Below the pieces are notes generated by a model that worked only from the letters and a program-made list of their open reading frames with translations, was not told the origin of the DNA and ran no database searches. Shown one piece after another: positions 1 through 32,000 of a stretch of 32,000 bases of DNA. Within the stretch, counting starts at the first letter, position 1; each line of letters starts with the position of its first letter. Made by a program: the position numbers and the translations under genes. The DNA is from Alkalilimnicola ehrlichii MLHE-1 (GTDB lineage Bacteria; Pseudomonadota; Gammaproteobacteria; Nitrococcales; Halorhodospiraceae), in contig NC_008340.1 in the NCBI RefSeq assembly GCF_000014785.1, forward strand, positions 1,890,001 through 1,922,000, given 5' to 3'.

Positions 1-519
1 TACTTCGCCCTGCGCCACTTCGGCCATGACTCGGTAGCCTTGCTCGACGGCGGGGTCGCCGGCTGGATCGACGCCGGCCACGATTTCGCCACCCGGCAGC
101 TCCCCTTCGAGCCCGGTGATTTTCAGGCAGGCCCCGGCGACGCAACGTTGCTGGCCACCCGCGGACAGATCGAGGCGGGTGAGGCCGGGGCCCTGGTGGA
201 CGGCCGCTCTGGTGGCGAGTTCAGGGGGCTCCTGGACAGCAGCTCGGTGGCGGGCCGTGGGCACCTGCCCGGCGCGCTGCATATCCCCATGGGGGACCTG
301 GGGAGCAGTGGCCGCCCGGCCTACCTGCACGACACCGAGCGGCAGCAGGCCACCTTTTCCGCCGTGCCCGACGGCCCGCTGACGGTCTATTGCGACACCG
401 GTCGACGCGCCACGCTGCACTGGTTCGTGCTCAACGAACTGCTCGGGAAGCCGGCCCGGCTCTACGACGGCTCCCTGCACGAGTGGACCCACCAGGGCGG
501 CGACCTGGCCCGGCCCTGA
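1..519 (+). CDS. Rhodanese-domain sulfurtransferase (thiosulfate/3-mercaptopyruvate sulfurtransferase-like); 5' end lies outside the window
   Basis: The frame is open from base 1 (YFALRHFGHDSVALLDGG...), so track ORF 40..519 is only the tail starting at an internal TTG. A catalytic rhodanese loop YCDTGRRAT (CxxGxR) is followed by LYDGSLHEW near the C-terminus. Confidence 0.8.
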   Translation, partial: YFALRHFGHDSVALLDGGVAGWIDAGHDFATRQLPFEPGDFQAGPGDATLLATRGQIEAGEAGALVDGRSGGEFRGLLDSSSVAGRGHLPGALHIPMGDLGSSGRPAYLHDTERQQATFSAVPDGPLTVYCDTGRRATLHWFVLNELLGKPARLYDGSLHEWTHQGGDLARP

Positions 520-531
520 CCGACACTTCGG

Positions 532-569
532 CCCCTCATCCGGACCGGGGCGCTCATCCGGATGAGGGG
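532..569. terminator. Hairpin between convergent genes; candidate bidirectional terminator
   Basis: Perfect 13-bp stem, CCCCTCATCCGGA (532-544) pairing with TCCGGATGAGGGG (557-569), with a 12-nt loop. It lies in the 66-nt gap between the rhodanese stop (519) and the minus-strand DUF3050 stop (586). There is no clean U-tract. Confidence 0.45.
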
Positions 570-585
570 TCGCTACTTGTGCGCG

Positions 586-1374
586 TTATGCCTCGGCGGT
601 TCCCGCCGCGAGTGCCGCCTGCACCCCGTCCCAGAACCGGATGCGGGCATCCACCGCCTGCTGTGCCGCCGCCTCGGCCTCGGCATATCGATCCGGGTCC
701 CCCTCGCACAGGGCATCGAGTAGCTGCAGCGAGAGCGGACCGTGGAAGTCCGCGTCCAGATGGATGTGCCGGTTGAGGTAGTAGTGAAAGGTGGGCGCCT
801 GAGCCTCCGTCACACCCATGCGGGCGAGGAAGGCCCGAAACATACCGGGTATGATGTGCTCGCGGCCCAGCGCCAGGGCCGCTGCCACGCAGTGGGGGCG
901 ATCCTCACGGATAAAGCCGAAGGTGGTCTGCATAAACGTCCGCGCAGGCGCCGGCACCTCCGGCAGCGTCAGGGCCCGGTCGATGCCCGCCTCCGCGACC
1001 CGCTCCACAAAGGCCAGTGGGACACGGGTGTCCGCCCCCATCTCCCGCATGGCGTGGCAGTAAAGCTCGAAGTGGCTGGCGTGGCCCTGGGCACTGCCGG
1101 GGGGCGCCTCGTCCGACTCCTCCTCCTGCACCAGGCTGTTGATGAAATAGCGCAGGGGGCCCTGTCCTGGCACGGGCACCCAGGGATAGCTCGCAGGCGC
1201 CACCTGGTTCTGGAGGTATTTCACCAGGGACATGAAATCCCAGACCGAATAGATATGGTGCTCCATGAACCGGCAGAGCTGCTCGCGGGTCTCAATGGCG
1301 CCATAGACCGGATGGGCCTCCAGTCGGGTCTGGGCGGCCTCGATCACTTCGGGGCTGAAGGCGGTACGGGTCAT
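586..1374 (-). CDS. DUF3050 family protein (heme-oxygenase-like helical fold)
   Basis: 262 aa. Blocks FMEHHIYSVWDFMSLVKYLQ, SHFELY, GREHIIPGMF, YYLNRHIHLDADFHG and RIRFWDG match my recollection of DUF3050 (PF11251). The start ATG overlaps the upstream gene's stop (ATGA at 1374). Confidence 0.7.
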   Translation of the reverse strand: MTRTAFSPEVIEAAQTRLEAHPVYGAIETREQLCRFMEHHIYSVWDFMSLVKYLQNQVAPASYPWVPVPGQGPLRYFINSLVQEEESDEAPPGSAQGHASHFELYCHAMREMGADTRVPLAFVERVAEAGIDRALTLPEVPAPARTFMQTTFGFIREDRPHCVAAALALGREHIIPGMFRAFLARMGVTEAQAPTFHYYLNRHIHLDADFHGPLSLQLLDALCEGDPDRYAEAEAAAQQAVDARIRFWDGVQAALAAGTAEA

Positions 1375-1982
1375 CAGCGGTTCTCCTCACGGTTCACTTG
1401 GGGGTCCGATTCGGCGGCTGCCGGCGCCCCGGAAATCAGCGGCTCCAGCAGTTCACCGATGGCCTTGTGCAGGCGCTCGGCCATGGCCGGCCCCTCCACC
1501 TCGGTCAACTGAGCGTGGAGCCAGACATCGTCCTCGTGGCCGGCCGCGCGCCCGCCCAGGGCCCCGAGGCAATTGAAGGCGGCGTAACCCGGCATCTCAC
1601 CGTCATAGCCGGCACGCGCATAGGTGGCCAGCCGTTCGTGGGCCCGGCGCACCAGGGCCACCCCGGCCTCCGGGTCGGCCACGCTCTCGGCGGCGCCGCT
1701 GCTCATGCGCTCGACCATGGCGGCCACCAGCCGGCGGCGGTGGTCGTCGTCCACACCGCGCAGCCAGGCGAGCCGGTCCACCATCTGCACGGCGAACAGG
1801 GCCAGCTCCTCCACCAGCGCCAGATGCCCACCGGCACGATCAGTCACCGGCCCATGCTCCGAGATATCGCGCACGGTTTGCGTTGCCATGCGCCAAGCCA
1901 GCATGGCGGCGGCCCCTCCCACCTGCTCCGGGTCGCGCGTTTGGCCGTGGCGGAACCAACGGGTCTTCATCCTCATCGCCAT
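1374..1982 (-). CDS. Hypothetical protein (202 aa, predicted all-helical); no family recognised
   Basis: ORF with high third-position GC. It is translationally coupled on both sides: it starts 3 nt after the Cas6-like stop, and its stop overlaps the DUF3050 start. Confidence 0.55.
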   Translation of the reverse strand: MAMRMKTRWFRHGQTRDPEQVGGAAAMLAWRMATQTVRDISEHGPVTDRAGGHLALVEELALFAVQMVDRLAWLRGVDDDHRRRLVAAMVERMSSGAAESVADPEAGVALVRRAHERLATYARAGYDGEMPGYAAFNCLGALGGRAAGHEDDVWLHAQLTEVEGPAMAERLHKAIGELLEPLISGAPAAAESDPQVNREENR

Positions 1983-1985
1983 GCG

Positions 1986-2654
1986 CTATTCCACCTCCGT
2001 CACCGACTTGTGTGGCATGAACAGGCCACAGCCCCAAAGGCCGCCGTCCCCCAGACCGCGGGACTGCAAACGATAGCTCCCTTCAGGCCCCATCTCGGCG
2101 ACCATCAGGCTGCGCAATGTCACCGGCCCCCACCGGGTCTGCAGGGTCTGCCGGCGGCCGCACAGCATCTTGCGCGGTTTGACCCCCATCGCCGCCAGTC
2201 GGCGCGCCACCGCCTCCATGAACTCGGCCTCGTCCTCTTCCGGGTGAACCAGCGGCACCACCCGGCTGGCGTAGAGCGTCTCCACTTGCTGCAGCTCCCG
2301 CACCCGTCCCCGAGCCAGCCGACAGGCCTCGCCGTCCACCTCAAAGGCGGTGCCCGAAAGGGCCAGCGCCGCCCGGGCGCGGTCCCGTGGCACCCGCAGC
2401 AGCAATTGCACCCGGCGCGAGAGGTAGATGGGCTGGCCCTCGCCCCGGTGCCAGCCATTGCCGCTGACCGGCAAATGCAACACCTTGACGCCGAAACCGG
2501 GCAGGCGGCTGAAATCGGCGAGCGGGTCGGCCAGCGCCTCGGCCAGGGCCGGGGCGTAATCCGCGGGCAGACTGTGCCCCTCCAGCCGAAAGGTGACGTC
2601 CACGGCCTCCGCAGGACCGGGCGCGGGGGTGGACTCATCGGTCTCCCAGTACAT
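1986..2654 (-). CDS. Cas6/Cmx6-like RAMP protein (type I-MYXAN Cas6 family-like), orphan
   Basis: The N-terminus VDVTFRLEGHSLPADYAPALAEAL resembles Cmx6-type Cas6. The C-terminal glycine-rich loop GLGDGGLWGCG fits the Cas6 GhGxxxxxGhG signature and is followed by LFMPHK. The preferred start is ATG 2654 (MYWETDE): GGGAGGG lies upstream and the ATG is 2 nt after the upstream stop. The track start 2693 is an upstream alternative. Confidence 0.6.
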   Translation of the reverse strand: MYWETDESTPAPGPAEAVDVTFRLEGHSLPADYAPALAEALADPLADFSRLPGFGVKVLHLPVSGNGWHRGEGQPIYLSRRVQLLLRVPRDRARAALALSGTAFEVDGEACRLARGRVRELQQVETLYASRVVPLVHPEEDEAEFMEAVARRLAAMGVKPRKMLCGRRQTLQTRWGPVTLRSLMVAEMGPEGSYRLQSRGLGDGGLWGCGLFMPHKSVTEVE

Positions 2655-2656
2655 GC

Positions 2657-2899
2657 TCACCCTCCCTTCGCCCGGGCCCAGGCCTGCAGCCACTGAGCCA
2701 TCTCCAGGGCCATCTCCTCGGTCAACTCCACATCGGTGAAGCGCCTTCCCTGGCGCAAACGTATGCGCAGCATCGGCAACCCACCGGGGTGGGTGACCGC
2801 CTGCAACTCGCAGTCGGCACCCCAGGCCAGGGATAACTCATGCAGGGTCTTTACACCCCCCTCCTCCGGAAGGTCGTGCTCCTTACCATTAAGCATCAT
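2657..2899 (-). CDS. Small hypothetical protein (80 aa)
   Basis: The ATG at 2899 overlaps the TauD-like stop codon (ATGATG/TGA overlap). It ends KGG-TGA 2 nt before the Cas6-like ATG. No family recognised. The track's longer start (2941) would overlap the TauD-like gene by 46 nt. Confidence 0.5.
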   Translation of the reverse strand: MMLNGKEHDLPEEGGVKTLHELSLAWGADCELQAVTHPGGLPMLRIRLRQGRRFTDVELTEEMALEMAQWLQAWARAKGG

Positions 2900-3765
2900 G
2901 TCGCCATCACCCTCTCGTGATACCGCGCCCGGAACAGGCAACGGCCCGGGCCATCCGTGGGGTCAACGAAGCCGGTACGGGTGTGCAGCACGTTATTGCA
3001 GATCAGCCCCTCACCCGGCGCCAGCCGGTGCTCCAGGACCCACGGGGACAGGTGGTCCAACATCTCGCGGAGCACCACGGAGGCCTCGGCAGGCCCATCC
3101 GGCGCCCAGCGTATGCTGCGGGTGCGCGCGGTATAACGCATATGCAGCCCGGTGGGCTCGAGCAGGAAAACGGGCCCACTGCGGTCGCCCTGCTCGGGGG
3201 CACGCGGGTCCGGCGGGATGGTCATGGCCCGGGGGTGCTGCAGGGCCTTCAGGGCATCGGGCCGGGAGACGGCGAGGGCCTGCCAGACCAGCCGGTGATC
3301 CAGCAGGCGGTTGACACCGCCCTCCCGGGCCGGGCGCACGCAATGCAGGATCAGTCCGCGCACCCGGCGCTCTGGCGGATTGTAGTAGCCATCGGTGTGC
3401 CAGTTGATCGGGCGGTCGGTGTAGGGGATGTACTCCGCACGCCGCTCGCCCGCGGGCGCCTGCATCAAAGTGCTGACCCCATCCTCCCGGACCAGCGGAT
3501 GGCGATCCAGGGTCCGCAGCCCCAGTTGCTCGCCCAGTGCGACCACCTGCGCCGGCGTCTGCAGCCGCCCCGGACCGGTCCGGTATAACGCCATACCGGC
3601 CTGCCGGCAGCGCGCCTGCAGCGCCCGACGCTCTCCCGTGCTGAGCCGGGAGGGGTCGCGAATCTCCACAAAGGGTGAATCCAGAAACCGCTGGTAACCG
3701 TCGAGGTAATCGTCCAGCAGGGCGGAGCGGCCGGCGAGCGGCGGCTTGTCGGCGATGGTGGCCAT
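2896..3765 (-). CDS. TauD/TfdA-family Fe(II)/2-oxoglutarate-dependent dioxygenase
   Basis: INWHTDGYY carries the HxD facial-triad motif, and ICNNVLHTRTGF carries the distal His, as in TauD-type enzymes. The preferred start is ATG 3765 (MATIADKPP), preceded by GGAGG. The track start at 3798 is a GTG inside a palindrome. Confidence 0.8.
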   Translation of the reverse strand: MATIADKPPLAGRSALLDDYLDGYQRFLDSPFVEIRDPSRLSTGERRALQARCRQAGMALYRTGPGRLQTPAQVVALGEQLGLRTLDRHPLVREDGVSTLMQAPAGERRAEYIPYTDRPINWHTDGYYNPPERRVRGLILHCVRPAREGGVNRLLDHRLVWQALAVSRPDALKALQHPRAMTIPPDPRAPEQGDRSGPVFLLEPTGLHMRYTARTRSIRWAPDGPAEASVVLREMLDHLSPWVLEHRLAPGEGLICNNVLHTRTGFVDPTDGPGRCLFRARYHERVMAT

Positions 3766-3827
3766 CGGGCACCTCCGGGCTGTGAGCCTTAAGGTCACAC
3801 CTTAATCAAGGGCACGAGGCCACTGCA

Positions 3828-3843
3828 TATCCCCTTTGGGATA
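3828..3843. promoter_or_regulatory. Palindromic operator candidate TATCCC-CTTT-GGGATA in the divergent TauD-operon/dsrA control region
   Basis: Perfect 6-nt inverted arms with a 4-nt spacer. The identical 16-mer recurs at 22755-22770. It lies 62 nt upstream of the TauD-like ATG and 144 nt upstream of the dsrA ATG. Confidence 0.45.
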
Positions 3844-3987
3844 CAGCCCCGATCAGCCGCATCCATCAATGGATATTTTACCGCCGGGTAGGGCTGCGTA
3901 GGTTAAGCATTGTTGAATACATCGACAGCGACCGTGCGCCAGCTCGCCTGCTGGCCGCAAAAACGGTGACGGAGGAGAGGCAGCGCC

Positions 3988-5259
3988 ATGGCCACTAAGA
4001 AGTCTCACGACACACCGAATCTCGATCAACTGGAAAGCGGCCCCTGGCCCAGTTTTGTCACCGGCCTGAAGCACCTGGCCGAGGACAAACCCATGATCAA
4101 CGACCTCCTGGGTCAGCTGGAGACCAGCTACCAGGACCGCAAGGGTTACTGGAAGGGCGGCACCGTCAGTGTCTATGGCTACGGGGGCGGGATCATCCCC
4201 CGCTTCACCGAGCTAAAGGACGAGAACGGCAAGGCGAAGTTCCCTGACGCCGCCGAGTTCCACACCATGCGCGTGATGCCGCCGGCCGGCATGCACTACA
4301 ACACCGAGATCGTCCGCAAGCTCTGTGACATCTGGGAGAAGTACGGCTCCGGCCTGATCGCCATGCACGGTCAGAGTGGCGACATCATGTTCCAGGGTAT
4401 CGACACCGAGAACATCCAGGCCTGCTTCGACGAGATGAACGAGCTGGGCTTCGACCTCGGTGGCGCCGGCCCGGCGGTCCGTACCGGCATGTCCTGCGCC
4501 GGTGCCGCCCGCTGCGAGCAGTCCTGCTTCAACGAGCAGCACCTGCACCGCAAGCTGGTCAACAACTTCCTCGACGACATGCACCGCCCGGCCCTGCCCT
4601 ACAAGTTCAAATTCAAGGTCTCGGGCTGCCCCAACGACTGCATGAACTCCATCGAGCGCGCCGACTTTGCCGCCATCGGCACCTGGCGGGACGACATGCA
4701 GGTGGACCAGGAGGAGGTCAAGGCCTTCGTCGCCCGCAAGGGCCGCAAGTATGTGGTGGACAACGTCATCAGCCGCTGCCCCACCAACGCCCTGAGCCTC
4801 AACGACGACGACACCCTGGATGTGGACAACGGTAGCTGCGTGCGCTGCATGCACTGCCTCAACGTCATGAACAAGGCGCTCAGCCCGGGCAAGGACCGGG
4901 GCATGACCCTGCTCATCGGCGGCAAACGCACCCTCAAGATCGGCGACCTTTTCGGCACCGTGGTGGCGCCCTTCCTGCCCCTGAACACCGAAGAGGACTA
5001 CGACCGGGTGGTGGAGATCGCCGAGGAGATCATCGACTTCTTCGCCGAGAACGCCCTGGAGCACGAGCGTACCGGCGAGATGATCGAGCGCATCGGCCTG
5101 GTCAACTTCCTGGAAGGCGTCGGCCTGGAGGTGGACCCGAACATGGTCCGCCACCCGCGCACCGTCTCCTACGTCCGCATGGACGACTGGGATGAGGAAG
5201 CCGAGAAGTGGTTCCGGCGCAAGCAGATGGAATCCGAGACCGGCAAGGCCGCCGAGTAA
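3988..5259 (+). CDS. dsrA: Reverse dissimilatory sulfite reductase alpha subunit
   Basis: The N-terminus LDQLESGPWPSFVTG...RKGYWKGGTVSVYGYGGGIIPRFTE is near-identical in pattern to Allochromatium vinosum DsrA. It has a ferredoxin-like Cys cluster (CPTNA...CVRCMHC). An RBS GGAGGAGAGG lies upstream. Confidence 0.95.
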   Translation: MATKKSHDTPNLDQLESGPWPSFVTGLKHLAEDKPMINDLLGQLETSYQDRKGYWKGGTVSVYGYGGGIIPRFTELKDENGKAKFPDAAEFHTMRVMPPAGMHYNTEIVRKLCDIWEKYGSGLIAMHGQSGDIMFQGIDTENIQACFDEMNELGFDLGGAGPAVRTGMSCAGAARCEQSCFNEQHLHRKLVNNFLDDMHRPALPYKFKFKVSGCPNDCMNSIERADFAAIGTWRDDMQVDQEEVKAFVARKGRKYVVDNVISRCPTNALSLNDDDTLDVDNGSCVRCMHCLNVMNKALSPGKDRGMTLLIGGKRTLKIGDLFGTVVAPFLPLNTEEDYDRVVEIAEEIIDFFAENALEHERTGEMIERIGLVNFLEGVGLEVDPNMVRHPRTVSYVRMDDWDEEAEKWFRRKQMESETGKAAE

Positions 5260-20449: not shown

Positions 20450-21115
20450 CTAACCCTTTTCGCGGCGGGTCAGCCCCAGGTCCACCGCCTTGACCGCCGC
20501 TTCGACCCGCGATTTCACGCCCAGCTTGCGCAGAATGGACTTGATGTGAAGCTTGACCGTGCCATCCGAAACCCCGAGTTCACGCGCAATGACCTTGTTG
20601 CTCTCGGCCCGGGCCACGTGCATGAGAATCTCCCGCTCGCGGGGCGTCAGTGCAGCGAAGGGGTCCGGCGGACGGGACGCCTCGGCACCCTCCCGCTGGC
20701 TGCGACCGCCTGCCATCATCTGGACCAGGGTATCGGTCAGACGGCTGGCGACGGCGGTCTGACCGGCCAGGACCTTTTCCAGCCCCTGGATCAGTTCCGC
20801 CGGTTCCGCGTCCTTGACCAGGTAGCCGTTGGCGCCGGCCTGCAGGGCCTGCAGCAGATCACGCTCCTCGTCGCTCGAGGTGAGCATCACCACCGGCAAT
20901 TCCGAATCCCGGCTGCGAATGCGCTTGAGCACCTCCAGCCCGCCGGAGCCCGGCATACGCAGATCCAGCAGCACCACGTCGGGAGGGCTCTTGGCCAGCG
21001 CACTGAGGGCCTCGATCTCGGTGCCTGCGTGTTCCACCTGATACCCATGCTGGCTGAGCATGTCGCCCAGCGCCACCCGCAAAAGGGTGTGATCATCCAC
21101 CAGCAGGAGCCGCAT
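20450..21115 (-). CDS. NarL/FixJ-family response regulator (REC + LuxR-type HTH)
   Basis: MRLLLVDDH...VVLLDLRMPG receiver domain and a C-terminal LTPREREIL...SDGTVKLHIKSILRKLGV HTH. ATG 21115 overlaps the kinase stop by 1 nt (TGATG), so it is preferred over the track start at 21142. Confidence 0.9.
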   Translation of the reverse strand: MRLLLVDDHTLLRVALGDMLSQHGYQVEHAGTEIEALSALAKSPPDVVLLDLRMPGSGGLEVLKRIRSRDSELPVVMLTSSDEERDLLQALQAGANGYLVKDAEPAELIQGLEKVLAGQTAVASRLTDTLVQMMAGGRSQREGAEASRPPDPFAALTPREREILMHVARAESNKVIARELGVSDGTVKLHIKSILRKLGVKSRVEAAVKAVDLGLTRREKG

Positions 21116-22455
21116 CAGCCCCGTTCCTCCCGACCGGGGCAACGGCCGCAGGAAGGCAGATAGACGGCGATCCGGGTCCCCTCCCCCAGTTCGCTTTGGA
21201 TCTCCAGATGGCCGCCGATGGCGTCGGCGCGGTCGCGCATCACGCCCAGGCCCAAGTGGTGGCCGTCGTCACCGTCACGGTGATCCGGCGGCGAATCGGC
21301 GAAACCGCGCCCGTCGTCCTCCACCACCAGCTCCATGTCGCAGCCAATCCGGTGCAAGGCCACCTGAACATGGCGGGCGCCGCTGTGGTTCCTGACATTG
21401 TTCAGCGCCTCCTGCACGATACGCAGGACCTGGAACTCTTGGTCGGGACTGAGCCGTCCCCGCGGCCAGTCATGGCTGAGCAGCACCCGGATGCCGCTAT
21501 CGCGCTGGAAACGGTGCACCAGCCGTTTGAGCGCGGGCTCCAGGCCACCCCCCTCCAGGGCGATACGGAATTGCCCCATGAGTTGACGCAGTTCGCCATA
21601 GGCCTGGTCCAGGCCGCGCCGCACATGGCGCAGGCCGGCACGCAGCCCGCCCGGCGCCCGTCCACCGCCGTGGCTGGCCTCCAGGTTGCGCACCTCCAGG
21701 CCCAACGCCGCCAACCGCTGGGCGAGGCAATCGTGGAGTTCGTGGGTGATCTGGCTGCGCTCCTGCTCCAGCGATTGCAGGCGGGCCTCGCTCTCGCGCC
21801 GGATGCGCTCCATCGCCAGCCCGAGGTGCTCGCCGGCCATCTGCAGCATGCGGTGCAGATTGAGCTGCTGCCACTGCTGCAGCATGACCGGCTCGAGGAA
21901 CAGGCTGAACACGCCCAGGCGGCGGTCGTCAGCGGTCAACGGCACCGCCAGCAGGTGCAGGTCCTCGTGCCCGATGGGGCGCTGGTAGCGCTTATGGCGG
22001 CAACCCTTCATACCGGGGTTGGAGATCAGACATCCGCGGAGGGCGGCCTCACCACAGGCGCAGTCCTCCGGCCGGACCCCACAGTCGTTTTCGGGGTAGT
22101 CGTCGCCGACGCCACGGGCGGCCACCAGGCGCAGCGTGCCCTCTGCGTCCATACGGCGGACCACGCCGGCAGTGGCCCCGGTGGCGCGCATCAATTGCTC
22201 CAGCGCTCCACTGAGCAGGGTTTCCAGATCATCACAGCGTTCGCTGGAGGTGCTCAGCGTATACAGCACTTCCATGGCCCGCGCACGCTCGCGCAGGGCC
22301 ACGATCTCGTCGTTCTCAGGGCCCGCCCGGTCATGCGGCGGAACCGCGTTGCTCTCCGCCGGCACCTCCACGAGCGAGACGGGCAGGCGTTTTCCCATAG
22401 GCACCATCGACCGAGCCGCGGAATGGAACCATGCGGGCGCATTCACGTTACCCAT
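21115..22455 (-). CDS. Soluble GAF-domain sensor histidine kinase (HisKA_3 / HATPase_c)
   Basis: HisKA_3 H-box ITHELHDCLAQRLAAL and ATPase N/G boxes (QEALNNVRNH, DDGRGF, GLGVMRDRA). I see no TM segments. The N-terminal GAF-like region carries a Cys cluster (DCGVRPEDCACGEAALRGC...GCRH). RBS GGAGGA lies 5 nt upstream of the ATG. Confidence 0.85.
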   Translation of the reverse strand: MGNVNAPAWFHSAARSMVPMGKRLPVSLVEVPAESNAVPPHDRAGPENDEIVALRERARAMEVLYTLSTSSERCDDLETLLSGALEQLMRATGATAGVVRRMDAEGTLRLVAARGVGDDYPENDCGVRPEDCACGEAALRGCLISNPGMKGCRHKRYQRPIGHEDLHLLAVPLTADDRRLGVFSLFLEPVMLQQWQQLNLHRMLQMAGEHLGLAMERIRRESEARLQSLEQERSQITHELHDCLAQRLAALGLEVRNLEASHGGGRAPGGLRAGLRHVRRGLDQAYGELRQLMGQFRIALEGGGLEPALKRLVHRFQRDSGIRVLLSHDWPRGRLSPDQEFQVLRIVQEALNNVRNHSGARHVQVALHRIGCDMELVVEDDGRGFADSPPDHRDGDDGHHLGLGVMRDRADAIGGHLEIQSELGEGTRIAVYLPSCGRCPGREERG

Positions 22456-22753: not shown

Positions 22754-22771
22754 CTATCCCCTTTGGGATAG
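22754..22771. promoter_or_regulatory. Palindromic operator candidate CTATCCC-CTTT-GGGATAG upstream of the small ORF/tusA unit
   Basis: Perfect 7-nt inverted arms with a 4-nt spacer. The core 16-mer is identical to 3828-3843. It lies 98 nt upstream of ATG 22869, in the divergent region shared with the two-component operon. Confidence 0.45.
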
Positions 22772-22868: not shown

Positions 22869-23066
22869 ATGGATCAGACCTACTACAAGACCATCACCCA
22901 GCTCGAGGAGCGCGGCGTGGACCCGGAATACCTCCAGGGCTGGGTCGGGGGGTATCTCCACAATCCCCCGCGGGAGGAGCAACGCGTCACCGCGGCCTAC
23001 GAGGCCGGGTACCAGGACGGCCGGGCCGGGAGCACCGATAGCGCCCAGCAATGGCAGCGCCATTGA
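22869..23066 (+). CDS. Small conserved-looking hypothetical protein (65 aa)
   Basis: Strong G/C bias at third codon positions, GGAGG 4 nt upstream of the ATG, a non-repetitive sequence (MDQTYYKTITQLEERGVDPEYLQGWVGGYLHNPP...), and it ends 34 nt before tusA. No family recognised. Confidence 0.5.
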   Translation: MDQTYYKTITQLEERGVDPEYLQGWVGGYLHNPPREEQRVTAAYEAGYQDGRAGSTDSAQQWQRH

Positions 23067-23100: not shown

Positions 23101-23340
23101 ATGGAAACCATGAGTATTGATCAGGAACTCGACGCTAGCGGTCTCAACTGCCCCCTGCCCATTCTGCAGGCCAAGAAACAACTGGCCAAAATGGAGGGCG
23201 GCCAGACCCTGCGCATCATCGCCACGGACCCCGGTTCAGTGAAAGACTTCGATTCCTTCGCCAAACAAACCGGCCACGAACTGCTGGAGAACGGCGAGGA
23301 AGGCGGCAAATTCACGTTCCTAATAAAGAAAAAGGGCTAA
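23101..23340 (+). CDS. tusA: TusA/SirA-family sulfur carrier protein
   Basis: DASGLNCPLPILQAKK carries the CPxP active-site motif. About 79 aa, with RBS GAGAGAGG upstream of ATG 23101 (alternative ATG at 23110). Track ORF 22714..23340 is an implausible Pro/Arg/Ser-rich N-terminal extension. Confidence 0.85.
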   Translation: METMSIDQELDASGLNCPLPILQAKKQLAKMEGGQTLRIIATDPGSVKDFDSFAKQTGHELLENGEEGGKFTFLIKKKG

Positions 23341-23433
23341 TACTTCGCCCTGCCACAAAGAACGATATAACGATTTAAAAAGCCGAAGTTCGGGCCCGCA
23401 TCGCCACCATGCCGGGCTTGGAGGAGAGTGAAG

Positions 23434-24072
23434 ATGCAACACAAAGGCTTAAGGGCCACTCTGGCCACCCTGGCGCTCGCCGGCGGGCTGCTTGCCACCG
23501 GCTGGGCGGTCGCGGAGGTCACCACGCCCTCCGGAAAAATGCTGGCCAACACCTGCAGCGGCTGTCACGGCACCGACGGCGTCAGCCATGGCCCCACCAT
23601 CCCCACCATCGCCGGCCAGCCCGAAGAATACTTCATCTACGTGATGCGCAAGTACCACACGGGCGATGCGCCCGGCTCGGTCATGAACCGGGTGGGGGAG
23701 GGCTATACCGACGCTGAGATCCGCGCGATGGCGGAGTACTACGCCGCCGTTGATTATGTCCCCGCCCAACAGGACTACGACACCGATCTGGCCCGCCGCG
23801 GCGCGGAGCTGCACGAGCAGAGCTGTGCCAGCTGCCACACCGCCAACGGCACCGTTGGCGAGGACGACCTGCCCATCATTGCCGGCCAATGGGCCCCCCA
23901 CCTGCGCTACACACTGGTCGATTACCTCCAGTTCGGACGCCCCTTCACCGAGGGCAAGCGTTCGCAGTTCATGGAGATCGCCCAGGGCTACTCCACCGAG
24001 GAGATTTTGGAGAACATCGACGCCCTGGTGCATTTCTATGTCAGTCAGCAGGATCCGGAGCTCTTCGAGTAA
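23434..24072 (+). CDS. fccA: Flavocytochrome c sulfide dehydrogenase, dihaem cytochrome c subunit
   Basis: Sec signal LATLALAGGLLATGWAVA and two CxxCH motifs (CSGCHG, CASCHT), directly upstream of fccB. ATG 23434 with GGAGGAG 7 nt upstream is preferred over the GTG at 23428. Confidence 0.85.
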   Translation: MQHKGLRATLATLALAGGLLATGWAVAEVTTPSGKMLANTCSGCHGTDGVSHGPTIPTIAGQPEEYFIYVMRKYHTGDAPGSVMNRVGEGYTDAEIRAMAEYYAAVDYVPAQQDYDTDLARRGAELHEQSCASCHTANGTVGEDDLPIIAGQWAPHLRYTLVDYLQFGRPFTEGKRSQFMEIAQGYSTEEILENIDALVHFYVSQQDPELFE

Positions 24073-24099: not shown

Positions 24100-25413
24100 A
24101 TGTCACAGCTTAATCGTAGGGATTTTCTGAAACTCGCCGGCTCCTCCGGGCTGGTCGCCGGTCTCCCGGCTACCGGCCTGCTGACCAGCGGCGGCGCCCG
24201 GGCCAGCAGCAACGGACGGGTGGTGATCATCGGCGGCGGCACCGGTGGCGCCACCGCCGCCCGTTACATCAAGCGCGCCTCACCCGGCACCGAGGTCACC
24301 CTCATCGAGGCCAAGCCGGTCCACCACACCTGCTACGTTAGCAACACGGTGATCGCCAGCCTGCGCGACCTGGATGACATCGCCCACGGCTACGACGGCC
24401 TGCGAGCGCTCGGCATCAACGTAGTCATCGACAAGGCCACCGCCATCGACGGCGAGGCGCAGACCGTCCGCACCGAGGGTGGCGAAACCTTCGAATACGA
24501 CCGCCTGGTGGTCTCGCCGGGCATCGAGCTGAAGTACGACGCCATCGAGGGTTATAGCGAGGCAGCCGCTGAGACCATGCCCCACGCCTGGATCGCCGGC
24601 GACCAGACCACTCGGCTGCGCGATCAGATCCGCGCCATGCCCGAGGGCGGGCTGGTGGTGCTGGCGCCGCCGCCGAACCCCTACCGCTGCCCACCCGGGC
24701 CCTATGAGCGGGCCTCGCTGATCGCCCACTACCTCAAGGCGCACAAGCCCGGCTCCAAACTGCTCATCCTCGACAGCAAGAACGCCTTCTCCAAGCAGGG
24801 TCTGTTCGAGCAGGGCTGGGAGATGTACTACTCGGACATCATTGAATGGGTGCCGGAGTCCGACTCCGCCGGCGGTGTCACCCGGGTCGATGCGGACAAC
24901 ATGACCGTCCACACCCCCTTCGACGACTTCGAACCGGACGTGGCCAATATCATTCCCGCCCAGAGGGCAGGCCGTATCGCGATTGAGGCGGGGCTCACCG
25001 ACGGCGGTGACTGGTGTCCGGTGGACCGGCGCACCTTCGAGTCCACGGTCATTCCGAACATCCACGTCATTGGTGATGCCTCCATCGCGGCGGCCATGCC
25101 GAAGTCCGGCTACTCGGCCAACTCCCAGGCCAAGGTCACCGCCCTGGCCATCGCGGCCTACCTGAACGGCATGGAGCCGGAGGCCGACCCGCGGTTCGCC
25201 AATGCCTGCTACAGCCTGGTCACGCCGGACCACTCGGTGTCGGTCAACGCCGTCTACAAGCTCAAGGAGGATCCCGACGCACCGGCCGGGGTCGCCCTCG
25301 ACAACATCGCCGGGGGCGTCTCGCCCATCGATGCGTCACAGACGTATCGGCGGCGCGAAGCCGCCTTCACCGAGAGTTGGTATCGCAATTTCCCCAAGGA
25401 TATCTGGGGTTAG
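24100..25413 (+). CDS. fccB: Flavocytochrome c sulfide dehydrogenase, FAD-binding subunit
   Basis: Tat signal [10 protein letters not shown] and the FAD fold [16 protein letters not shown]. Its length and pairing with a dihaem cytochrome are typical of FccB/SoxF. Confidence 0.88.
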
Positions 25414-25443: not shown

Positions 25444-25501
25444 TGCCCGCCACCCGCGCGACGAACCGATCCCGTAACACCATTCCCGTCAGGAGTTGTC
25501 C

Positions 25502-28426
25502 ATGAGCACCACCGCGGCATCGCAGGCGGCCGGTCCCCGGCTGCCCGAGTTCGAGCCCCATGACCGCCAGGAGGTCAAGACCACCACCTGCTACATGTGC
25601 GCCTGCCGCTGCGGCATCAAGGTGACGCTGGAGGAGGGCCAGGTCCGCTTCATCCAGGGCAACCCCGACCACCCGGTCAACCGGGGTGCCCTTTGCGCCA
25701 AGGGCAATGCCGGCATCATGAAGCAGTACTCCCCGGCCAAGCTCAGCAAGCCGCTGATGCGCAAGCCGGGCAGCGAACGCGGCAAGGGCGATTTCGAAGA
25801 GGTCTCCTGGGACAAGGCGCTGGACGTGCTCGCACAGCGGCTCGCCGAGATCCGGCGCACGGACCCGAAGAAGCTCGCCTACTTCACCGGCCGCGACCAG
25901 ATGCAGGCATTGACCGGCCTCTGGGCAGCCCAATTCGGCACGGTCAACTGGGCCGCCCACGGCGGGTTCTGCTCGGTCAACATGGCCGCCGCCGGGCTCT
26001 ACACCATGGGCCATGCCTTCTGGGAGTTCGGCGATCCGGACTGGGAGCGCACCAAGTACCTGATGCTTTGGGGGGTGGCCGAGGACCACGGCTCCAATCC
26101 CTTCAAGATCGGCATCGGCAAGCTCAAGGGCCGCGGCGGCCGCTTCGTCGCCATCAATCCGGTCCGCACCGGCTACCAGGCGGTCGCGGATGAATGGGTG
26201 CCCATCCGCCCCGGCACCGATGGCATGCTCGCCATGGCGATGATCCACGTGCTGTTGCGCGAGGAGCAGTTCGACTGGGAATACCTGATCCGCTACACCA
26301 ACGCCCACCACCTGGTGGTGCAGACCCCCGGCGAGCCGGGCCACGGGCTGCTGCTGCGCGACGAGAACGACAAGCCACTGAGCTGGGACCTGGAGCGCGA
26401 GGCGTTCGTCGACGCCACCCAACCCGACATCGCCCCCGCCCTGTTCGGCGACTACCAGGCGCCCGATGGCCGCCCGGTGAAGACCGTGATGAGCCTGATG
26501 GCGGAACGCTACCTGAGCGAGGACTACAGCCCGGAGCGCGCCGCCGAGGTCTGCGGGGTGAGCGCCGACACCATCGAGCGCCTGGCGCTGGAACTGGCCC
26601 ACGTGGCCTTCAAAGAGAGCATCGAGATCGAATGCGAATGGACCGACTGGGCGGGTCGTAAGCACGACCGCATCATCGGGCGCCCGGTCTCCATGCACGC
26701 GATGCGCGGGATCTCCGCGCACTCCAACGGTTTTCAGGCCTGCCGGGCCATCCACCTGCTGCAGATCCTGCTCGGCTCGGTGGATGTACCCGGGGGGCAT
26801 CGGGCCAAACCGCCCTACCCCAAGCCGGTGCCACCGCCCATCAAACCCGCGCGACCGACGGCGCCGGGGGAACCGCTGGCCGGCCCGCCGCTGGGCTTCC
26901 CCAAGGCCCCGGAGGATCTACTGATCGACGACCAGGGCAACCCGCTGCGCCTGGACAAGGCCTACTCCTGGGAGGCGCCCCTGGCCAACCACGGCATGAT
27001 GCACATGGTGATCACCAATGCCGTGAAGGGCGACCCCTACCCCATCGACACGCTGATGCTGTTCATGGCCAACATGGCCTGGAACTCCACCATGAACACC
27101 TCCGGCGTGCTGAAGATGCTGCGCGAGAAGAACGGCAACGGGGAGTACAAGATCCCCTTCCTGGTGGTGGTGGACGCCTTCCACTCGGAGACCGTGCAGT
27201 ACGCCGACCTGGTCCTGCCTGACACCACCTATCTGGAGCGCCACGACGTAATCTCCATGCTCGACCGGCCCATCTCCGAGCCGGACGGGCCCGCGGACGC
27301 GATCCGCCAGCCGGTGGTGGAGCCGGACCGCGACGTGCGCCCCTGGCAGGAGGTGATGATCGACCTGGCCGGCCGGCTCGGGCTGCCGGCGTTCACCAAC
27401 GAGGACGGCAGCCCCAAGTACAGCGGCTATCTCGACTTCATCACCCGCTTCGAGAAGGCACCCGGCGTGGGCTTTCTCGCCGGCTGGCGCGGCAAGGAGG
27501 GGGACCAGGACCTGCGCGGTGAACCCAATCCGGACCAGTGGACGCGCTACAAGGAGAATGGCTGCTTCTACAAGTACGAGCTGCCGCTCTCCCACCAGTT
27601 CTACAAGTTCGCCAACAAGGGCTACCTGGAGTGGGCCCGCGATGCCGGCCTCAACGGCAGCGCCGATCCCATCGTCTTCGAACTCTACTCCGAGACCCTG
27701 CAGCGGTTCCGGCTCGCGGGCCAGGGGCTCTACGACGGCCCTTGTCCCACTGACCCGGAGGACCGTCAGCGCCTGAGCAGCTACTTCGATCCGCTGCCCT
27801 TCCACTACACCCCGCTGGAGGAGACCCGTTGCGACGGCGAGGCCTACCCCTTCCACGCGGTCAACCAGCGCCCCATGTTCATGTACCACTCCTGGGACAG
27901 CCAGAACGCCTGGCTTCGTCAACTGCAGGCCTATAACCGGCTGCACATCAACCGGGCCCAGGGTGAGCGCATGGGCCTGGCCGATGACGACTGGGTCTGG
28001 GTGGAGTCGCACCTGGGCCGCATCCGGGTCCAGATCCGGCTCATGGAAGGCGTGCAGGAGAACACCGTCTGGACCTGGAATGCCATTGCCAAGCAATCCG
28101 GCGCCTGGGGACTGGATCCCGAGGCCCCGGAGGCGCGCCAGGGGTTTCTCATGAACCACCTGATCTCCGAGCTGCTGCCCAAGCGCAACGGCGGACGGGA
28201 CATCACTAACTCCGATCCCATCACCGGCCAGGCCGCCTGGTACGACCTGCGGGTCCGCATCCGCAAGGCCGAGCCGGGCGAGACCGGCAGCTGGCCGCAG
28301 TTCGAGACCTTGCAACTCATCCCCGGCGTGCAACGCGCGCCCGCCGATGAGCTGCGCTACGCCGTACACGAACCGGTGCGCCTGCACCGTTCCATGCACG
28401 ACATACTCAACCGGAGAGGGGCATGA
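25502..28426 (+). CDS. soeA: Cytoplasmic sulfite-oxidising molybdoenzyme, catalytic Mo-bisPGD subunit (SoeA-type)
   Basis: 974-aa DMSO-reductase-family protein with an N-terminal Fe-S motif CYMCACRCGIKV...C and no twin-arginine signal. It is followed by a 230-aa ferredoxin subunit and a 315-aa membrane anchor, matching the subunit sizes I recall for SoeABC in A. vinosum. ATG 25502 with AGGAG 6 nt upstream is preferred over the TTG at 25496. Confidence 0.8.
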   Translation: MSTTAASQAAGPRLPEFEPHDRQEVKTTTCYMCACRCGIKVTLEEGQVRFIQGNPDHPVNRGALCAKGNAGIMKQYSPAKLSKPLMRKPGSERGKGDFEEVSWDKALDVLAQRLAEIRRTDPKKLAYFTGRDQMQALTGLWAAQFGTVNWAAHGGFCSVNMAAAGLYTMGHAFWEFGDPDWERTKYLMLWGVAEDHGSNPFKIGIGKLKGRGGRFVAINPVRTGYQAVADEWVPIRPGTDGMLAMAMIHVLLREEQFDWEYLIRYTNAHHLVVQTPGEPGHGLLLRDENDKPLSWDLEREAFVDATQPDIAPALFGDYQAPDGRPVKTVMSLMAERYLSEDYSPERAAEVCGVSADTIERLALELAHVAFKESIEIECEWTDWAGRKHDRIIGRPVSMHAMRGISAHSNGFQACRAIHLLQILLGSVDVPGGHRAKPPYPKPVPPPIKPARPTAPGEPLAGPPLGFPKAPEDLLIDDQGNPLRLDKAYSWEAPLANHGMMHMVITNAVKGDPYPIDTLMLFMANMAWNSTMNTSGVLKMLREKNGNGEYKIPFLVVVDAFHSETVQYADLVLPDTTYLERHDVISMLDRPISEPDGPADAIRQPVVEPDRDVRPWQEVMIDLAGRLGLPAFTNEDGSPKYSGYLDFITRFEKAPGVGFLAGWRGKEGDQDLRGEPNPDQWTRYKENGCFYKYELPLSHQFYKFANKGYLEWARDAGLNGSADPIVFELYSETLQRFRLAGQGLYDGPCPTDPEDRQRLSSYFDPLPFHYTPLEETRCDGEAYPFHAVNQRPMFMYHSWDSQNAWLRQLQAYNRLHINRAQGERMGLADDDWVWVESHLGRIRVQIRLMEGVQENTVWTWNAIAKQSGAWGLDPEAPEARQGFLMNHLISELLPKRNGGRDITNSDPITGQAAWYDLRVRIRKAEPGETGSWPQFETLQLIPGVQRAPADELRYAVHEPVRLHRSMHDILNRRGA

Positions 28427-29115
28427 AGCTGGGACTGGTCATCGACACGGACACCTGCGTGGGCTGTCACGCCTGCGCGGTGGCCTGCAAGCAGTGGAAC
28501 ACCTCGGGCACGCTCGGGCCGCTGACCGACTATCAGCCATGGGGCGAGGCGCCCTCCGGGGTCTGGTTCAACCGGGTGCGTACCTACGAGGAGGGCGACT
28601 ACCCCCATTGCAAGACGGTGAACCTACCCATGTCCTGCATGCACTGCGAGGACCCGGTCTGCGTCACCGTCTGCCCCACCGGGGCCTCCTACAAGCGGGA
28701 GGAGGACGGCATTGTCCTAATCGATCAGGACAAATGCATGGGCTGCAACTACTGCGCCTGGGCCTGCCCTTACGGCGCCCGGGAGCTGGATCGCGCCACC
28801 GGGACGATGAAGAAGTGCACCCTGTGCGTGGACCGGATCTACGACGAGTCCCTGCCGGAGGCGGAACGCCAGCCCGCCTGCGTATTGGCCTGCCCGGCCC
28901 GGGCGCGCCACTTTGGCGATCTGAACGATCCCGACTCCGATGTCAGCCGCCTGGTCCGCGAGCGCCGCGGCCAGGGCCTGATGAATGAGTTGGGCTACCG
29001 GCCGGTGAACCGCTATCTGCCGCCCCGGAACCCGCAAGCCACCCCCACCGTCGAGCCCAAGCCCGGTCTGGGCGACCGGCTGCGGAACTGGGTCAACCGC
29101 GTCGTCCACCGCTGA
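28423..29115 (+). CDS. soeB: SoeB-type 4x[Fe-S] electron-transfer subunit
   Basis: CVGCHACAVACK, CMHCEDPVCVTVCP, CMGCNYCAWACP and CTLC...C clusters. The start overlaps the soeA stop (ATGA). Confidence 0.8.
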   Translation: MKLGLVIDTDTCVGCHACAVACKQWNTSGTLGPLTDYQPWGEAPSGVWFNRVRTYEEGDYPHCKTVNLPMSCMHCEDPVCVTVCPTGASYKREEDGIVLIDQDKCMGCNYCAWACPYGARELDRATGTMKKCTLCVDRIYDESLPEAERQPACVLACPARARHFGDLNDPDSDVSRLVRERRGQGLMNELGYRPVNRYLPPRNPQATPTVEPKPGLGDRLRNWVNRVVHR

Positions 29116-29129
29116 CAGGAGGAGCCTCA

Positions 29130-30077
29130 ATGCATCCACCACTTTCCGTCGTGGGCTTCACCGTCCTCTCCGGCGCAGGCTACGGTTTCATCGCGCTGTT
29201 CGTCATCGCCGCCATGCTTCAGCTCGGCGGACCGGTGGCTGGCGGGGAACTGACTGCTGCCGCGATTATCGGTTTCCTGCTCATCACCGTCGGCCTGCTG
29301 CTCTCCACCGGGCACTTGGCCAACCCGCGCAACGCCTGGCGCGCCTTCAGTCGCTTCCGCAGCTCCTGGCTGTCCCGCGAAGCGGTGCTGGCCGTGCTTT
29401 TCTACCCCGTCGCCGCGCTCTACCTGCTCGGACTGCTTCTGGGCGACGGGGTGAGCCACGGGCCGGTCACCGGCCTGCTGGGCGTGCTCACCGTCATCCT
29501 GGCCCTGGGCACGGTGCTGGCCACCGGCATGATTTATGCTTGTCTGCCCACCATCCGGGCCTGGCACTCCAGCCTGACCCCGATCAACTACCTGTTGATG
29601 GGGCTGGCCCTGGGCGGGTTACTGCTGGTGCTGGTCCGCGGAACCGGCGGGGCCGACCTCACCCCTGTCACCGCCCTGGCCCTGCTCCTTTTGGTCCTGG
29701 CCGGACTGGGCAAATTGCTGCATTACGACTGGCAACGCCGCCAGGCCCACCGCGGCCCGGACGCCGGCAGCGCCACCGGCCTGACCGGAGGCCGCGTCCG
29801 CCTGTTGGATCCGGGGCATACCAGCGGCACCTTCCTCACGGAGGAGTTCATCCACGGCGCCGATGAGGACGGCATCCGGGTCCTGCGCCGCCTGGTACTG
29901 ATGGCGGGGTTCGTGATACCGGCCTTGATGCTGCTGGCCATGGCCACCTCCCCCGCCCTTTGGCCGGTGGCGCTGGCGCTGCCCATCGCCTTTGCCGGGG
30001 TCCTGCTGGAGCGCTGGCTGTTCTTCGTCGAGGCCCGGCACGTGGTCCGTCACTACAACGTCCGTACCGCCGTCTGA
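29130..30077 (+). CDS. soeC: SoeC-type (DmsC/NrfD-like) membrane anchor
   Basis: 315-aa polytopic hydrophobic protein, 14 nt after soeB. Confidence 0.75.
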   Translation: MHPPLSVVGFTVLSGAGYGFIALFVIAAMLQLGGPVAGGELTAAAIIGFLLITVGLLLSTGHLANPRNAWRAFSRFRSSWLSREAVLAVLFYPVAALYLLGLLLGDGVSHGPVTGLLGVLTVILALGTVLATGMIYACLPTIRAWHSSLTPINYLLMGLALGGLLLVLVRGTGGADLTPVTALALLLLVLAGLGKLLHYDWQRRQAHRGPDAGSATGLTGGRVRLLDPGHTSGTFLTEEFIHGADEDGIRVLRRLVLMAGFVIPALMLLAMATSPALWPVALALPIAFAGVLLERWLFFVEARHVVRHYNVRTAV

Positions 30078-30804: not shown

Positions 30805-30820
30805 CCTCCCAAAAGGGATA
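30805..30820. promoter_or_regulatory. Degenerate copy of the TATCCC-N4-GGGATA palindrome upstream of cysG
   Basis: CCTCCC-AAAA-GGGATA: the right arm is perfect, the left arm matches 4 of 6, and the inner TCCC/GGGA arms are symmetric. It lies 97 nt upstream of the cysG ATG, similar to the spacing at the tusA-unit site. Confidence 0.25.
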
Positions 30821-30821
30821 G

Positions 30822-32000
<1,179 letters not shown>

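Follow-up and report, generated by a model that had tools for sequence, protein, structure and literature searches.

What is a gene named after CRISPR (clusters of regularly interspaced short palindromic repeats) doing in an operon that faces the sulfur-oxidation genes of Alkalilimnicola ehrlichii MLHE-1? We analyzed a 32,000-nucleotide stretch of this genome (positions 1,890,001 to 1,922,000 of contig NC_008340.1, RefSeq assembly GCF_000014785.1; hereafter the window), in which five closely packed minus-strand open reading frames (ORFs), read directly from the sequence at 586-3765, lie divergent from dsrA. They encode, in the order of transcription, a TauD-like dioxygenase, a small DUF6967 protein, a Cas6-like protein, an acidic 202-aa protein and a HamA-like oxidase. 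The reverse-operating Dsr (rDsr) pathway is the main cytoplasmic sulfur-oxidation route in free-living as well as symbiotic sulfur bacteria, and its regulation and several of its steps are unresolved. We consider it probable, while leaving ample room for doubt, that the operon represents, in its Alkalilimnicola form, an undescribed module with an accessory or regulatory role in rDsr, assembled around a Cas6 homologue that was recruited from CRISPR. Beside the oxidative dsr genes there is a co-located, probably co-regulated and evolutionarily persistent module whose constant member is a non-CRISPR Cas6 homologue, and we infer for it an accessory or regulatory function in sulfur oxidation that depends on Dsr.

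The evidence that carries this reading is comparative. One genome per species of the Genome Taxonomy Database was scanned with a profile of the Cas6-like protein, and synteny was read from the best 80 loci plus follow-ups. At least 591 species genomes encode such a protein, at 35-45% identity, and the 80 best among them come almost exclusively from sulfur-oxidising Gamma- or Betaproteobacteria, including Chromatiaceae, Ectothiorhodospiraceae, Acidiferrobacterales, Thiotrichales, Sedimenticola, Arenicellales and Beggiatoa relatives. In phmmer searches the Cas6-like gene is adjoined by DsrA in 73 of 83 loci and by the TauD-like gene in 68 of 83; profile searches over 90 loci raised these numbers to about 79 for DsrA and about 75 for the TauD-like gene, which lies upstream of the Cas6-like gene. 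The Cas6-like gene is the only member found in every locus examined, and dsrEFH, the marker of the oxidative type, is present in all these dsr clusters. The recurrent order, which spans Chromatiales, Ectothiorhodospiraceae, Acidiferrobacterales, Thiotrichales and Arenicellales, has dsrA and dsrB on one side and, divergently, the TauD-like gene, a gene for a 64-aa protein, optionally one for a 239-aa protein, the Cas6-like gene and a gene for a DsrC paralogue. This paralogue, which accompanies the module in most genomes, lacks both functional cysteines and carries the tail ...AGLPxxxRKGGY in 77 of 77 loci where it directly follows the Cas6-like gene (L084:10809-11147, L086:10776-11114 and 75 others); the canonical DsrC of the same loci ends in ...PKPTGCV and has kept both cysteines in 57 of 58 cases. 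Rhodanese genes are found nearby in loci other than that of Denitratisoma.

The linkage between the module and dsr survives gene rearrangement. In the betaproteobacterium Denitratisoma the genes beside dsrA encode, in this order and in one direction, DUF6967, the Cas6-like protein, TusA, two DsrC proteins, the 202-aa protein and the TauD-like protein, and in a Halorhodospira species (locus L090) and a metagenome contig (L091) the Cas6-like gene followed by the 202-aa gene stands alone beside dsrA. The TauD-like gene is absent from the loci of Lamprocystis, Halochromatium, Lamprobacter, Thiohalocapsa and Halorhodospira, in all of which the gap between dsrA and the next gene is too short to hold it. 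The first four of these genera retain the Cas6-like protein and the DsrC paralogue along with the small and the 239-aa proteins, and no PF13640 oxygenase genes were found in the examined flanks of their loci. Because they are missing from these anaerobic purple sulfur bacteria, the O2-dependent enzymes look like add-ons of aerobes. Thus, the five-gene set as such is lineage-specific, and the core of Cas6-like, TauD-like and 202-aa genes is widely conserved and tied to dsr. An initial annotation of the locus, made from the sequence without database searches, had proposed a co-occurrence analysis, which bore out this core but not DUF3050 (the former name of the HamA-like family) nor the five-gene set. 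The same annotation had called a link to sulfur metabolism conceivable; this has become the strongest result, resting on about 80 genomes of several orders in which dsrAB adjoins the Cas6-like and TauD-like genes, and on a palindrome conserved in the control region.

This exact palindrome, TATCCCCTTTGGGATA, lies in the intergenic region between the operon and dsrA. Of 74 loci, 42, from many families, have a copy with at most one mismatch in the intergenic region of dsrA, where its density is 1.08 per kb versus 0.009 per kb elsewhere, an approximately 117-fold enrichment. When about 50 intergenic regions were aligned on the palindrome, its spacing to a TAnAAT-like -10 box proved to be fixed, and between the two lies a second conserved element (ATCCATCAATGGAT in the window, CACCCCAtGGGTAGGAT-like in other families). 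The palindrome would be centred about 77 bp upstream of the inferred transcription start of dsrA. Whichever way it is read, its central 4 nt are AT-rich, as a DNA operator would lead one to expect, and we regard the palindrome as a candidate operator shared by the two divergent promoters and probably belonging to a sulfur-oxidation regulon. Being located upstream of the conserved -10-like box, the palindrome is outside the dsrA mRNA; the idea that the Cas6-like protein targets it as an RNA hairpin was therefore rejected. A second exact copy would place tusA in one regulon with dsr, and because the same palindrome thus stands before tusA in the window, module and sulfur oxidation are probably turned on at the same time. 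The palindrome also provides an experimental handle on the switching-on of sulfur-oxidation genes. Weaker copies are found in the window at 30805-30820 and 30836-30851.

That the constant member of the module is a Cas6 homologue is indicated by sequence profiles and by structure prediction alike. The protein matches Pfam family PF09559 (E = 4.8e-59) and scores 97.2 bits, just under the cut-off of 98.85, against the Cmx6 equivalog TIGR02807, and the profile of its family matches the type I-B Cas6 in the Protein Data Bank (PDB) entry 8fcj_B at 4e-26. Its AlphaFold2 model (predicted local distance difference test score, pLDDT, 88.3) finds Cas6 structures as best Foldseek matches, with a template modelling (TM) score of 0.72. 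It is thus predicted to have a genuine Cas6 fold of the repeat-associated mysterious protein (RAMP) type with the C-terminal glycine-rich loop. With type I-B/MYXAN Cas6 (Cmx6; chain B of 8fcj and 8fcu, from the Cascade of a type I-B CRISPR-associated transposon) it shares, at 24% identity and the above TM score, the same fold of two RNA recognition motif-like domains, and the arginine pair of the SRRxRLxLR strand is present in both proteins. Residues R81, R87, H215 and K216 are invariant in 92 sequences of the Cas6-like family, and D19, D32, E142 and S182 are kept in 89-91 of them; the glycine-rich loop and R81/R87 are common to the family and to a genuine Cas6 that binds CRISPR RNA (crRNA). 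The PHK motif that follows the loop, by contrast, is invariant in and specific to the Cas6-like family, with PAT at this place in 8fcj_B. At the beginning of helix 1, where many Cas6 enzymes carry catalytic residues, the family has a conserved histidine or tyrosine. In a full HMMER scan the wider family comprised 1,757 clusters when grouped at 50% identity; 378 of these reached E <= 1e-30, and the best 150 clusters were all single-domain proteins of about 200-290 aa without informative fusions.

The surroundings of the gene are not those of a CRISPR-Cas system. No CRISPR array was detected in the 32-kb window or in 92 Cas6-like loci totalling 1.4 Mb, and the Pfam-annotated neighbours of the gene include no cas5, cas7, cas8, cas3, cas1 or cas2 but only dsr, sulfur-relay, oxygenase and unknown genes. 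The family (about 90 loci) thus differs from CRISPR Cas6 in lacking an array and cas genes, in being acidic instead of basic, in having PHK instead of PAT, and in its fixed position beside dsrAB. In NCBI the protein is nevertheless called 'type I-MYXAN CRISPR-associated protein Cas6/Cmx6', and it scores 232 bits with PADLOC Cas6 profiles. Since the PADLOC matches consisted of Cas6 profiles alone and fell on this protein alone, membership in a defence system was rejected. As a functional annotation the CRISPR Cas6 label is misleading. Hundreds of genomes carry a gene labelled in this way without CRISPR context, a point of importance to annotation as well as to CRISPR biology; when sulfur oxidisers are surveyed for CRISPR, the gene may be listed as an orphan cas gene.

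How does the module compare with what is known of dsr? Accessory genes of the oxidative dsr system described for Allochromatium vinosum are dsrEFH, dsrC, dsrL, dsrN, dsrR and dsrS (PMC3368242). Like these, the module is linked to dsrAB, probably co-regulated with it, and associated with DsrC-family, TusA and rhodanese proteins. Unlike these, its five proteins fall outside the named Dsr families, and its genes are transcribed divergently and not within the dsrABEFHC... series. In the searchable literature no paper was found that links Cas6-like, TauD-like, DUF6967 or DUF3050 genes to dsr; a Solemya symbiont genome paper mentions TauD homologues and dsrC copies without cysteines and draws no connection between them. 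What is new here is the conserved combination of a Cas6-family protein with dsr accessory genes, components that are each known as a kind. The gene set keeps its place beside dsrAB in several orders yet is absent from published dsr lists, which makes it an obvious candidate for a missing accessory or control function.

The five genes form one operon. The junction between the TauD-like and DUF6967 genes is an ATGA overlap (2899-2896), followed by a 2-nt gap before the Cas6-like gene (2656-2655), a 3-nt gap before the 202-aa gene (1985-1983) and a 1-nt overlap, TGATG, at 1374 before the HamA-like gene; a GGAGG-like Shine-Dalgarno motif precedes every start codon, and all ORF boundaries coincide with public gene calls on identical contigs (Table 1). 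The best-matching database protein is one of Alkalilimnicola ehrlichii, with 99% identity. The tightly coupled five-gene operon described in the initial annotation is borne out by these ORFs, junctions and gene calls, its overlap and both gaps having been correctly placed, except that the last junction had been taken for a second ATGA. The family calls made there (TauD-like, DUF3050 with a heme-oxygenase fold, Cas6-like) agree with the Pfam and PDB matches, and the divergent arrangement with a control region common to the operon and dsrA (start at 3988, plus strand) was also recognised correctly, the intergenic region being 222 bp long. The operon had further been said to end at a 13-bp hairpin. 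A hairpin is indeed found 3' of the last stop codon (RNA fold of 515-590, 76 nt: -35.3 kcal/mol, z = -3.06), but its stem measures 14 bp, and it lacks a following U tract and was not called in the terminator scan. It is common to the operon and to a convergent rhodanese-domain gene (1-519, plus strand), which is cut by the window edge and encodes 323 aa in contig L001.

Table 1. Position of the operon genes and of control elements in the window
Feature	Position	Strand	Remarks
GC-rich hairpin, 14-bp stem	532..569	-	between operon end and convergent rhodanese gene
HamA-type heme-oxygenase-like oxidase (PF11251, formerly DUF3050)	586..1374	-	262 aa
Acidic helical protein, no assigned family	1374..1982	-	202 aa; no Pfam match
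Cas6/Cmx6-family RAMP protein	1986..2654	-	222 aa; PF09559
DUF6967 small protein	2657..2899	-	80 aa; PF22295
TauD/TfdA-family Fe(II)/2-oxoglutarate dioxygenase	2896..3765	-	289 aa from ATG 3765; longest ORF from GTG 3798
Shared divergent control region, TauD-like gene / dsrA	3766..3987	.	direct sequence reading
Palindrome TATCCCCTTTGGGATA, candidate operator	3828..3843	.	exact 16-bp, TATCCC-N4-GGGATA
Second conserved element ATCCATCAATGGAT	3861..3874	+	about 17 nt downstream of palindrome; CACCCCAtGGGTAGGAT-like in other families
-10-like box TAGGTT, presumed dsrA promoter	3899..3904	+	about 57 nt downstream of palindrome
Second exact copy of palindrome TATCCCCTTTGGGATA	22755..22770	.	about 100 nt upstream of 65-aa ORF, then tusA

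With respect to mechanism, the Cas6-like protein might bind, and perhaps cut, structured RNA of sulfur-oxidation genes, and this binding would tune the expression of these genes after transcription; the O2-dependent oxygenases would be add-ons in aerobes, modifying a shared protein-bound or small substrate. Such an RNA-binding mechanism is a tentative proposal that may well prove wrong; we prefer it because the Cas6-like protein retains the glycine-rich loop and R81/R87, and the Cas6 fold and the conserved histidine or tyrosine of helix 1 also speak for it. More tentative still is the far-reaching form of this idea, namely that a Cas6 endoribonuclease homologue was permanently recruited from CRISPR immunity into the core energy metabolism of Gamma- and Betaproteobacteria, where it would act as an RNA-binding or RNA-processing regulator of rDsr or as an adaptor binding an RNA mimic, with the oxygenases giving an oxygen input in aerobes. 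We know of no other housekeeping, non-defence role of a RAMP protein, and the module would be a rare case of such a protein taken over for another job, besides giving the rDsr pathway a component so far unrecognised. A role of the Cas6-like protein purely as a protein scaffold seems rather doubtful to us.

Several observations weigh against the reading given here. In the window no Rfam match was obtained at gathering thresholds and no target RNA was found, nor is there a hairpin downstream of the Cas6-like gene that is common across families. The Cas6-like family is mildly acidic (median isoelectric point, pI, 6.2; net charge -2.9), whereas the crRNA-binding Cas6 of 8fcj_B has a pI of 9.2 and a net charge of +5, and the partners of the Cas6-like protein are strongly acidic; this acidity fits a protein-binding role at least equally well. 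In the Cas6-like family H215 and K216 are invariant, and D19, D32 and E142 nearly so, but of these at least H215 and K216 are not the same in 8fcj_B, a genuine Cas6, so that a new ligand or catalytic site is possible. In addition, the operon in the window lacks the DsrC paralogue that goes with the module elsewhere, and the linkage to dsr was checked in the 80 loci most similar to the query, out of the at least 591.

Among the alternative explanations, the one that survives best, improbable as we consider it, is protein modification. The TauD-like enzyme, together with the HamA-like protein here and PF13640 enzymes elsewhere, would hydroxylate a protein of the Dsr or sulfur-relay systems, such as the flexible C-terminal arm of one of DsrC type, and so couple rDsr activity to O2, with the Cas6-like, DUF6967 and 202-aa proteins as adaptors. 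The TauD-like protein is a good match to PF02668 (2.4e-20; 74 bits, cut-off 27). As the initial annotation had noticed, it contains an HTD...H triad, within a WHTDG...H motif that is near-invariant in its 74 relatives, and the HxD...H triad and arginine residues, a set also intact in TauD, in the gamma-butyrobetaine and trimethyllysine hydroxylases and in AsnO, are kept in 67-73 of these 74. It matched no characterised equivalog and is a separate subfamily tied to the dsr-adjacent module. Its only PDB sequence match, a weak one, is AsnO (2og5), so that its nearest solved relative is an amino-acid hydroxylase, which suits protein modification. The same is true of the tail conserved in the DsrC paralogue behind the Cas6-like gene, of two PF13640 oxygenases and DUF6866 as recurrent neighbours, of the joint absence of O2-dependent genes from anaerobic purple sulfur bacteria, of the action of HamA on a carrier-protein-tethered residue (PMC12522199), and of the acidity of the Cas6-like protein and its partners. 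However, the window contains neither the DsrC paralogue nor PF13640 genes, and because the Cas6-like core persists without oxygenase in anaerobes, hydroxylation cannot be the core function of the module.

Quite unlikely is a cassette for small-molecule tailoring or biosynthesis, in which some metabolite, a sulfur carrier or a signal perhaps, is modified jointly by the TauD-like and HamA-like enzymes. The operon does combine two families of oxygenases that are known from natural-product pathways, and ham, pvf and mgo clusters include the HamA, PvfA and MgoB homologues (PMC12522199, PMC5878181, PMC3298696). The HamA-like protein is assigned firmly to PF11251 (DUF3050, now HamA_HO-like; 2.3e-86, 289.7 bits) and matches the solved DUF3050 protein 9vwb_A over its full length (6e-50). 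HamA of the Burkholderia fragin pathway is reported to be a mononuclear Fe/2-oxoglutarate enzyme acting on carrier-tethered valine, with iron and 2-oxoglutarate bound by H40, E84, H96, R167 and H199 (PMC12522199). These residues align to H40, E85, H101, R171 and H203 of the window protein, which thus keeps the metal and 2-oxoglutarate contacts of HamA, PvfA and MgoB. The helix motifs rich in His, Glu and Asp that had been pointed out in the initial annotation are present, but the di-iron site proposed there does not agree with the mononuclear enzyme reported for HamA.

Unlike the ham and pvf systems, however, the HamA-like gene of the window has no NRPS (non-ribosomal peptide synthetase) carrier (HamD/PvfC) or N-oxygenase (HamC/PvfB) as partner, and no NRPS, N-oxygenase, ligase or other core biosynthetic enzyme is encoded in or near the operon (annotated flanks in contig L001: about 5.3 kb towards dsr, 10 kb in the opposite direction). 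The gene is linked to the other operon genes in Alkalilimnicola only: among 80 metagenomic loci with HamA-like proteins of 50-64% identity none has a Cas6-like, TauD-like or dsrAB gene, for which reason it was rejected as a stable member of the module. No neighbour is broadly conserved around these 80 genes, and no NRPS carrier enzyme or N-oxygenase is conserved there. Together with the anaerobic lineages, which keep the module without any oxygenase, this leaves the earlier idea of a DUF3050 and TauD tailoring cassette poorly supported. Genes for HamA-like proteins of this degree of identity are common in marine and sediment metagenomes and mostly solitary; small subsets follow hscBA (7-9 of 80) or precede a gene for a two-cysteine DsrC/TusE protein (8 of 80).

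Organosulfonate desulfonation, by which the TauD-like enzyme would free sulfite from a sulfonate and feed the Soe and Dsr pathways, is in our view very unlikely. It would account for the TauD family membership and the position beside dsr, and a TauE-type exporter gene is located nearby in 11 loci and a soeABC-like cluster in the same window. However, the protein had no match to a TauD equivalog in NCBIfam; its best matches there, to TmpA, TMLH and BBOX, have E values of 5e-6 to 4e-4 and scores 10-20 times below the cut-offs, and the sulfonate cleavage that had been suggested for it is thus not indicated. The operon includes no sulfonate transporter, and desulfonation explains neither the Cas6-like core nor the versions of the module without TauD.

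It is highly improbable that the Cas6-like or another module protein is a DNA-binding regulator of the TATCCC-N4-GGGATA palindrome. Palindrome and Cas6-like gene co-occur in nearly every locus, but this is in part built in, the loci having been selected by way of the Cas6-like protein. The module has no conserved transcription factor, which leaves room for such a role; yet the Cas6-like family is acidic, we know of no RAMP fold that binds double-stranded DNA, and the second palindrome copy has a NarL-type two-component system encoded beside it. This system consists of a NarL/LuxR-type response regulator (20450-21142, minus strand) and a GAF-HisKA_3 sensor kinase (21115-22455, minus strand), and the palindrome resembles the 7-2-7 sites of NarL/LuxR-type regulators. 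As a conserved neighbour the NarL-type regulator was rejected, since it is not conserved near other dsr loci. Finally, that the gene is an orphan, functionless cas6 left by a decayed type I-B/MYXAN CRISPR-Cas system, as its NCBI name and the PADLOC score might suggest, is hardly credible, because its presence in at least 591 genomes at 35-45% identity with invariant family-specific residues, in the same place beside dsrA across orders, without arrays or cas genes and with translational coupling to the neighbouring genes, is what purifying selection on a functional gene produces.

The partners of the Cas6-like protein are variable. The 80-aa protein is a member of Pfam family PF22295 (DUF6967; 3.4e-24), whose gene recurs in Denitratisoma only, there directly before and overlapping the Cas6-like gene; in most other genomes its position is taken by an acidic protein of 64-65 aa that is unrelated to DUF6967. 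The 202-aa protein had no match in Pfam, NCBIfam or PADLOC, and its AlphaFold2 model, a six-helix bundle (pLDDT 83.7), had no fold match in the PDB (best E = 0.6). The statement of the initial annotation that both proteins resemble nothing recognisable therefore holds for the 202-aa but not for the 80-aa protein. Homologues of the 202-aa protein are encoded directly after the Cas6-like gene in Halorhodospira-type loci and also in the Denitratisoma operon, and altogether the family is found within 10 kb of the Cas6-like gene in 35 loci. A word-indexed search for deeper alignments yielded seven relatives of the 202-aa protein and three of DUF6967. Hidden homology among the variable partners (202-aa versus 239-aa protein, DUF6967 versus 64-aa protein, and others) was rejected, as hhalign probabilities were <=1.5%.

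The second palindrome copy in the window is followed by a sulfur-oxidation island. It comprises the 65-aa ORF (22869-23066), tusA (approximately 23101-23340, about 79 aa), a dihaem cytochrome c gene (23428-24072), the gene for the flavocytochrome c sulfide dehydrogenase FccB (24100-25413) and a soeABC-like trio of molybdopterin, 4Fe-4S and DmsC-type genes (25496-30077). In other genomes a second recurrent gene group is located near the module (for example L086:13910-18976 and L084:11572-15122), which encodes two prolyl-hydroxylase-like 2-oxoglutarate oxygenases of family PF13640, DUF6866 and several acidic proteins without family, sometimes together with a TauE exporter or a GNAT protein, and in which a gene of the 202-aa family is divergent from that of DUF6866.

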